The notes under the pieces were generated by a model. The model did not search any database. It was given only the letters and a program-made list of their open reading frames with translations, and was not told where the DNA came from. A DNA stretch of 64,000 bases. Origin: Eledone cirrhosa. Lineage: Eukaryota. The stretch is from NCBI GenBank assembly GCA_964016885.1, contig OZ024740.1:181536001-181600000 (forward strand), given 5' to 3'. Shown here one piece after another: positions 53,712 to 54,611 of this stretch; the stretch's first letter is position 1, and each line of letters opens with the position of its first letter. A program made the translations under genes and the position numbers.

Positions 53712-54611
53712 ATAAAAACAAATAACGAAACAAAATTAAATTTCGTTTCGTTTGTAACTCACTTTTGTATGACTGACGCTTAAACAATTAAGTTAAAAAT
53801 GTACATCTACATATGCATACTGAAATACTAGTATGCATATGAATACACACACGTATACATATGTAGATGTACCAAGTCTTTCACTGGTTACTTTACTGTG
53901 AGTATCCAGCTATTCTGTATGTAAACACACAGACAAACCGGTTTTTAGAGTCATACTGGTTTTTGAGGAAACACCTTTCCTCTATTCTCCAGAAAGCCAG
54001 ACAAGGAATATTGAACAGTAAAGTAACCAGTAAAGTAACCAGTGAAAGACTTGGTACATCTACATATGTATACGTGTGTGTATTCATATGCATACTAGTA
54101 TTTCAGTATGCATATGTAGATGTACATTTTTAACTTAATTGTTTAAGCGTCAGTCATACAAAAGTGAGTTACAAACGAAACGAAATTTAATTTTGTTTCG
54201 TTATTTGTTTTTATCGTCTCCGTTGAACCGGTACGTACTCACACTCTATGCAAATTGGTCTGCCCACTACTAATTTTCATAGAAAAAGCATATAACGATA
54301 TGTGCTTTTACGATTCTCCAGAAAGGCCGGTAGATAGGTAAATATTGCTGATGAGTTGTAACAACAACGAAACTAGTTCAATATTCCTTGTCTGGCTTTC
54401 TGGAGAATAGAGGAAAGGTGTTTCCTCAAAAACCAGTATGACTCTAAAAACCGGTTTGTCTGTGTGTTTACATACAGAATAGCTGGATACTCACAGTAAA
54501 GTAACCAGTGAAAGACTTGGTACATCTACATATGTATACGTGTGTGTATTCATATGCATACTAGTATTTCAGTATGCATATGTAGATGTACATTTTTAAC
54601 TTAATTGTTTA
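53712..54611 (+). mobile_element. Non-coding hammerhead retroelement: 466-nt unit in partial tandem plus an inverted partial copy (retrozyme-like)
   Basis: 54028-54145 is repeated at 54494-54611. 53712-54016 is an inverted copy of the unit. Long (TA)n on both sides. Confidence 0.8.
54341..54385 (+). ncRNA. Canonical type I hammerhead ribozyme
   Basis: aatattg-CTGATGA-gttg taacaa caac-GAAA-ctag-TT-caatatt. Perfect stems I and II, palindromic stem III, predicted cleavage after 54378. Confidence 0.92.

Follow-up and report, generated by a model that had tools for sequence, protein, structure and literature searches.

The closest described systems are the metazoan non-LTR retrozymes. As set out in the accessible text of two reports, these are tandem arrays of a short, AT-rich unit without an ORF that carries one type I hammerhead with a short palindromic stem III; the predicted circle is highly paired, copies number in the thousands, and Penelope-like elements (PLEs) co-occur (PMC7229834; 10.64898/2026.07.22.740005). 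The unit studied here shares all of these traits. Mobilisation by a PLE reverse transcriptase (RT) acting on the circle has been proposed for metazoan retrozymes (PMC7229834; 10.64898/2026.07.22.740005). The element class is thus already known and, judged by its features, the 466-nt family is a further member, its unit being a little longer than the 150-450 bp given by Cervera and de la Pena 2020 (PMC7229834). Cleavage and circles were demonstrated for published retrozymes (PMC7229834), and in the 466-nt family both are predicted. Neither inverted two-armed insertions nor fixed start sites nor (TA)n targeting is described in the accessible text of the retrozyme papers (PMC7229834; 10.64898/2026.07.22.740005), and the words 'inverted' and 'microsatellite' are absent from that of PMC7229834.

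PLEs generally leave inverted 5'-truncated copies and a one-sided tail (PMC8557442). The EN+ PLEs resemble the present family in their partial tandems, their inverted 5'-truncated copy and their AT-rich or (TA)n targets (PMC8557442; PMC11167929), and also in a one-sided tail set by two RT starts, with both strands cut and extended (PMC11167929). The retrozyme differs from them in the lack of an ORF and in arms of up to 13 units. Its tail measures 69-75 nt, compared with 30-40 nt in EN+ PLEs, and its start sites are U-rich with microhomology to the target, whereas the PLE starts in an AC-rich loop without homology (PMC11167929). For the anole PLE it is reported that two RT start sites define the tail, that both strands are cut and extended and that the protein is predicted to be a dimer; in vitro, uncut RNA was the dominant substrate and the element's own ribozyme was not needed (PMC11167929).

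How retrozymes return to DNA and how the tandem, inverted and tailed layout of PLEs arises are open questions in the accessible text of these papers (PMC7229834, PMC8557442, PMC11167929, 10.64898/2026.07.22.740005). We consider it probable that the insertion described below is that of a high-copy, ORF-less 466-nt non-LTR retrozyme in (TA)n, for which the EN and RT were likely borrowed from a PLE, and which likely arose by twin priming on one, probably circular, monomer. No description of the 466-nt family or of two-armed retrozyme insertions was found in the main texts of the papers searched, the supplements of which may hold cephalopod retrozymes or PLE end maps; the first-pass annotation likewise named no description of the family.

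The 466-nt unit and its hammerhead

The window is the whole 64,000-nt stretch of DNA that was analysed. Unit positions are numbered from 54028, which is unit position 1. The insertion and its target are laid out as follows.

53524..53711, no strand: left (TA)n target tract, from the sequence
53712..54016, minus strand: arm A, an inverted partial unit (unit 349-466, then 1-187), a perfect 305-nt match to the circularly permuted unit
53712, minus strand: outer end of arm A, site A, abutting (TA)n, by sequence comparison
54017..54027, plus strand: junction between the arms, 11 extra bases, by which the start of arm B is duplicated over 12 nt, from the sequence
54028..54611, plus strand: arm B, 1.25 tandem units with a period of 466 nt, by direct repeat
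54611, plus strand: outer end of arm B, site B (unit 118), abutting (TA)n, from the sequence
54612..54750, no strand: right (TA)n target tract, from the sequence
54341..54385, plus strand: type I hammerhead motif, by pattern search and covariation
54314..54407, plus strand: outer stem 54314-54328/54394-54407, which extends stem I, from the circular fold

The structure proposed in the first-pass annotation was reproduced. The exact head-to-tail period was confirmed, positions 54028-54145 and 54494-54611 being 100% identical at a spacing of 466; the copy reported as inverted proved to be a perfect 305-nt piece of the permuted unit, and the strand switch through a 12-nt duplication was found at 54016-54048. 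The single intact hammerhead it had reported was the sole core detected by pattern search in the whole 64-kb window. The circular fold that it had suggested as a check gave -154.5 kcal/mol for the 466-nt unit, compared with -93.4 +/- 5.5 for 60 dinucleotide shuffles (z -11), with 67% of the unit paired, and contained the outer stem, the hairpins and the agtcatac/gtatgact pair that had been named as signs of self-complementarity. The unit has a G+C content of 35%, and no ORF of at least 90 aa was found over its 466 nt.

The flanks at 53504-53664 and 54610-54770 form a 161-nt inverted duplication of 98% identity, made up of the TA tract and the 3' end of a PLE family with a 713-aa frame. A similar palindrome surrounds the TA tract at locus L095, and fold-back copying at cut (TA)n may possibly be common. 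L095 was considered as a retrozyme/PLE chimera and rejected, as it is an inverted copy of its own flank.

In the hammerhead, stem I (54341-54347/54379-54385) has 7 pairs and stem II (54355-54359/54364-54368) has 5; CUGAUGA lies at 54348-54354 and GAAA at 54369-54372, and stem III consists of two pairs around a palindromic UA loop, ACUAGU. From the motif, the cut is predicted at GUU|C, 54378|54379, and the outer stem would keep the cut ends together. No match to the hammerhead was obtained in Rfam at the gathering score. Among 14 ribozyme variants of the 466-nt family and its sister family, 92% of the cells in the stems were paired and six of the 17 stem pairs had changed on both sides, with 35-50% in slid controls; these variants are related and were picked for variety, and the shuffle counts are not probabilities. 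A weak palindromic helix III is usual in metazoan hammerheads and is reported to act as a dimer in tandem repeats (PMC4209133). The same probably applies to the present hammerheads, given the two-pair palindrome of their stem III. Family-wide, an older subfamily has GUC as its cut triplet, and the young subfamily that is expanding, to which the window's copy belongs, has GUU. GUU is a weaker triplet than GUC, and a weaker ribozyme might favour stable circles.

Viroids carry ribozymes in both polarities and lack a DNA stage; here the hammerhead core lies on one strand only and the unit has thousands of DNA copies. Several other TA-associated repeats contain CUGANGA-stem-GAAA cores with a long stem II and without an obvious stem III, for example at L079:1434, L097:3036 and L042:181.

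The family, its outer ends and its PLE neighbours

The 45-nt ribozyme had 4,843 exact matches in the 3.0-Gb genome, and 2,535 site-A ends and 2,112 site-B ends were joined to TA; the controls for these three counts gave 0, 0 and 3. There are about 2,000-2,500 insertions in (TA)n genome-wide, and 116 distinct ones, of about 2,500, were analysed. The sample combined the best unit matches, the first ribozyme places and 60 stretches selected on the site-A end alone; repeat views of the same insertion and the segmental duplicates L070 and L094 were dropped. Clean two-armed alignments were obtained for 79 insertions. The other 37, many of which by eye have a very short second arm, were excluded from the end counts.

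The genome-wide search for ORF-less copies proposed in the first-pass annotation thus returned thousands of ribozyme matches and young, dispersed (TA)n insertions. The annotation had held that copies always attached to a PLE ORF would speak against its reading; such constant attachment was not found among the 116 insertions. Arrays carry one ribozyme per 465-468 nt, and arrays of pure unit reach 25 units. No ORF continued from the unit in the 116 insertions, as expected of a retrozyme, which has neither coding capacity nor an LTR, PBS or PPT, and an RT and GIY-YIG ORF flanked by the repeat, as in an autonomous PLE with its pLTRs, was not observed. None of the 64 ends examined ran from the unit into a PLE frame or into a continuation common to several insertions, and PLE matches near unit ends were separate neighbours.

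A sister retrozyme family with a unit of about 420-430 nt had 10,700 exact ribozyme matches. It is roughly 65-72% alike to the 466-nt unit and has the same build and two homologous ends, about 57 nt apart; its cut triplet is GUA and the base of its stem II contains a U-U mismatch. Examples lie at L178:5106-5707, L176:470-1480 and L216-L227.

The outer ends of the arms mapped to two sites.

54139..54145, plus strand: site B, fixed outer end (unit 112-119, mostly 113 and 118), 3' of the long hairpin 54055-54125, by end mapping
54208..54214, plus strand: site A, fixed outer end (unit 187), 3' of the hairpin 54172-54202, by end mapping

Both are 3' ends of the ribozyme strand that face (TA)n. With ends at unit 108-119 counted as B, the combination A+B was present in 68 of the 79 clean insertions and A+A in none; the other 11 comprised seven with A and another end, three cut by the end of the stretch and one with B+B. 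Among the 39 clean insertions not selected on site A, 34 had A+B. Each site meets the target with 2-4 nt of microhomology. This fixed pair of ends, which was absent from the first-pass annotation, is the informative feature of the family, and we infer that A and B are the starts of reverse transcription. Arm lengths in the 79 insertions had medians of 543 and 629 nt and maxima of 6,056 and 5,269 nt, and the arms overlapped by 1-5 nt at 40 of the 79 junctions. Target duplications of 12-13 nt, microhomology included, were found at L007, L031 and L043, where they overlap both ends by a few bases; a duplication of more than 4 bp, where visible, is a retrozyme trait. At most sites it is unreadable because the target is pure TA. 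The inverted 5'-truncated copy, the two fixed 3' ends and the AT-rich target are features of PLE-mobilised sequences. The suggestion of the first-pass annotation that PLE machinery had inserted the unit into (TA)n was in this respect supported, as an ORF-less hammerhead tandem family, young and dispersed, carries PLE-type ends.

In L1 twin priming, both ends of the target break prime cDNA, and the inverted 5' part is joined via microhomology. Each of the two L1 cDNAs represents a different part of a single linear RNA, and the position of the second start varies. The retrozyme differs in that both starts are fixed and both arms repeatedly copy the same sequence.

Two young PLE families with intact copies were found in the genome.

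L147:2169-5822: intact copy of PLE-1217 (example)
Window 60348-61847, minus strand: decayed copy of PLE-1217
L179:4722-6863: intact young copy of PLE-713 (example)
Window 55618-57290, plus strand: decayed copy of PLE-713 (RT, C-terminal GIY-YIG)
Window 16084-16647, 38553-39199 and 63829-63981: further RT fragments related to PLE-713

PLE-1217 has a 1217-aa RT frame with a C-terminal GIY-YIG in a 4,117-bp tandem unit and is present in many near-identical copies. It carries a hammerhead-like core and has divergent arms as in the retrozyme; the outer ends, set in (TA)n, map to positions 1986 and 2029/2031/2044 of the PLE unit. In PLE-713 the frame is 713 aa long and about 105 nt separate the two ends. 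Of 20 stretches around PLE-1217, 18 were read for the two-armed plan, as was the PLE-713 family. By the linker and CCHH descriptions in the accessible text of PMC8557442, PLE-1217 looks Neptune-like and PLE-713 Hydra-like; Pfam gave only a weak RVT_1 match on four PLE fragments. The DNA similarity of PLE-1217 to the 466-nt unit was not significant (best E 0.54), and none was found between the unit and the body of PLE-713. By DNA sequence, neither of these two young PLEs is marked out as the partner. Matches of 72% beside PLE-713 copies were considered as a partner signal and rejected, since they are the sister retrozyme family in the same TA tracts. In PLE-1217, a long Asn-rich stretch occupies part of the N-terminal region, and tandem units and arms are 100% identical. 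With a 466-nt substrate, two exact start sites, the target sequence and two intact candidate enzymes from one genome, the question of insertion becomes testable in vitro. RNA-templated insertion would also benefit from a short RNA by which a PLE is directed to write the two strands of a break.

The template of the two arms

The first-pass annotation had placed the inner end of arm A at the predicted cleavage site. This held for the window, where the arm ends 3 nt short of the cut, 2 of them via microhomology, but not as a family rule, which was rejected because 151 of 158 inner ends lie elsewhere. Seven inner ends, the window's included, were within 3 nt of the cut site, compared with 2.4 expected (p 0.010; about 0.03 by hand without the window's arm), and chance alone would yield roughly one third of them. 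In the site-A sample the count was 4 of 80, with 1.2 expected. Over ten bins of the unit the 158 inner ends were spread evenly (chi-square p 0.42); an excess at unit 345-380 (23 vs 12.2) refers to an interval chosen after the data had been seen. From the even spread and the modest excess, the junction in the window may be a run-off from cut RNA or chance. Run-off from cut RNA may explain a minority of the arms; alternatively, the enzyme may pause at the ribozyme. At least one cut site was crossed by 116 of 136 arms, and at least two by 47. The 203 passes through the cut site contained one indel and one substitution, compared with 4.4 and 6.3 expected, and thus showed no scar of template jumping.

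The arms of one insertion differed by 0.55% and different insertions by 5.3%. The own partner arm was the best or tied match in 41 of 57 cases, and the rest were mostly very young, near-identical loci. At 12 of 68 loci, a total of 19 private variants, present in no other sampled locus, were fixed in every round of both arms. The period was constant within an array and differed between arrays (465, 467, 468). A three-copy test compared, at 6,678 positions, the two arms of a given round with one further round; the deviating copy was arm A in 19 cases, arm B in 19 and the further round in 20. If the template were a multimer of differing units, the third class would be enlarged; the observed ratio is the star pattern expected of a single monomer template, although the interval for the third share, 0.22-0.48, stays compatible with very young, uniform linear multimers. 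This test replaced a first register count (38), which was uninformative where just one other round exists.

At L100, 17 of 36 differences from a close relative were A>G on the ribozyme strand, compared with 0-4 in seven other relatives, and 16 of the A>G changes recurred in both full rounds, as repeated copying of one deaminated RNA would leave behind, with ADAR as the presumed source of these marks. Among all private fixed changes there were 14 A>G and 4 T>C on the ribozyme strand (p 0.017), an excess that rests on L100 (7 of 14); singletons comprised 35 A>G and 30 T>C (Fisher p 0.10 for private fixed changes vs singletons).

L042 has 22 rounds and is almost invariant in either arm. Several other arrays deviate from uniformity. 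At L051 a two-unit block was duplicated after insertion, and at L055/L056 (G000:C1:56387338-56398021) a variant with a period of three units occurs in one arm only of an otherwise uniform 23-unit insertion; fast unequal exchange, a template change or assembly may lie behind it. Because some arrays changed after insertion, long arrays are not by themselves proof of many turns. Variants present in both arms and confined to one round, as from a multimer template, were seen at two sites of L098 and one of L052. Dimer or trimer circles were considered for L051 and L055/L056 and rejected, since the pattern is missing from the outer rounds or from the other arm. A 496-nt contig of run X4 (type unknown), a closed cycle of 466+30, was discarded as evidence of circles since a tandem array gives the same.

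Taken together, the shared private variants, the scarless cut site, the 19:19:20 ratio and the repeated marks of L100 favour twin-primed rolling reverse transcription of one monomer, probably circular, as the template of both arms. The route would begin with transcription of tandem copies, perhaps from an internal U6-like box, a step we put forward with reserve. Hammerheads, probably as dimers, are predicted to release monomers at GUU|C, and a host ligase would close them, by analogy with mussel and axolotl retrozymes. A PLE protein, probably a dimer, would cut (TA)n with a stagger of about 10-13 nt, which would account for the duplication observed at few sites. One 3' end would prime at site A and the other at site B, 69-75 nt upstream, in keeping with the observed ends. 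Both cDNAs would then circle one shared template, completing anything from part of a turn to 13 turns, as the observed sharing of variants suggests, and would be joined at random points by the short microhomology observed. In a few percent of arms, run-off from a cut linear monomer may take the place of circling, and arm A of the window is maybe one of these. A broader reading is possible but is held only tentatively: the RNA circle would be genome-encoded and self-promoted, the subunits of a Penelope RT dimer would start at the two fixed sites and chase each other round from opposite ends of the break, and the same route would give the tandem, inverted and tailed layout of autonomous PLEs.

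Other templates would also yield tandem arms. It is unlikely that the template was an uncut linear multimer of a uniform parent array, copied by PLE twin priming, with the ribozyme idle or trimming and the length maintained by unequal exchange. In vitro, the anole PLE used mainly uncut RNA (PMC11167929) and 8 of 9 retrozyme dimers from Xenopus stayed uncut (10.64898/2026.07.22.740005), and the block duplications at L051 and L055/L056 and the register-matched variants at L098 and L052 fit such a template; against it, inherited differences between units are not in excess (19:19:20), private variants are fixed over all rounds of both arms, the 22-round L042 is nearly invariant, the marks of L100 are repeated, and arms would become shorter in every generation. 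It is less probable still, in our judgement quite unlikely, that the RT ran off the 5' end of a ribozyme-cut linear monomer and jumped to the 3' end, either of that monomer or of a second one. R2 and related RTs are known to jump between templates, and inner ends are enriched about threefold at the cut site, arm A of the window included; yet the 203 passes left no scar, 151 of 158 inner ends lie elsewhere, and variants continue unchanged across the site although the family is 1-5% diverse.

That the repeats are truncated end repeats (pLTRs) of an unseen autonomous PLE, and not an independent element, is highly improbable. The ends resemble PLE tails, Xenopus retrozymes resemble pLTRs in the accessible text of 10.64898/2026.07.22.740005, and the insertions read were 116 of about 2,500. 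This reading is opposed by the 64 ends without a shared continuation or PLE frame, by the separateness of nearby PLE matches, by pure arrays of up to 25 units and by a sister family of the same build with its 10,700 ribozyme matches. Scarcely credible is satellite DNA spread by rolling circles at the DNA level, or an assembly artefact: near-identical tandem units are hard to assemble and two arrays show unequal exchange, but the fixed ends are strand-specific, target duplications and one-strand A>G marks are present, the ribozyme covaries, and the independent run X1 contains the unit and head-to-head joints.

A possible U6-like promoter module

The newt satellite 2, like the present unit a hammerhead tandem repeat, is cited as having an internal snRNA-type promoter (PMC2220036). 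The candidate module is as follows.

54247..54295, plus strand: promoter-like module, box TATGCAAATTGG at 54247-54258 and TATAA at 54291-54295, 43 nt on, by likeness to the U6 -77 box

Unlike newt satellite 2, the box matches the -77 box of U6/U6atac, and the TATA is 3-5 nt closer than in U6 (43 in the repeat vs 46-48 in U6, counted by hand). The 466-nt family and the sister family keep TATGCAAATT in common. Of 103 locus variants of the repeat, 84 carry the perfect box and 101 have a TATA 43 nt further; the flanks, 553,816 nt in all, gave a single match to the box. Three different U6 upstreams have the box at -76 to -78, and the best U6atac upstream has it with one letter changed. Among the upstreams listed, it was absent from 2 of 5 for U6, 5 of 6 for U6atac and all 4 for U2, and most local alignments of promoter and unit were not significant. 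No run-off excess was seen among the inner ends at the start predicted for a U6-type promoter (unit 293-299). The T5 runs at 54127-54131 and 54208-54212 would terminate Pol III short of a full monomer, and the box is put forward as a candidate internal promoter, a lead.

The U6/U6atac genes at L190, L191, L192 and L210 have TATG(C/G)(A/T)AAT(T/G)AG at about -77 and a TATA at about -30, and the U2 genes are without the box. The -77 box may be the Pol III type 3 upstream element of this lineage.
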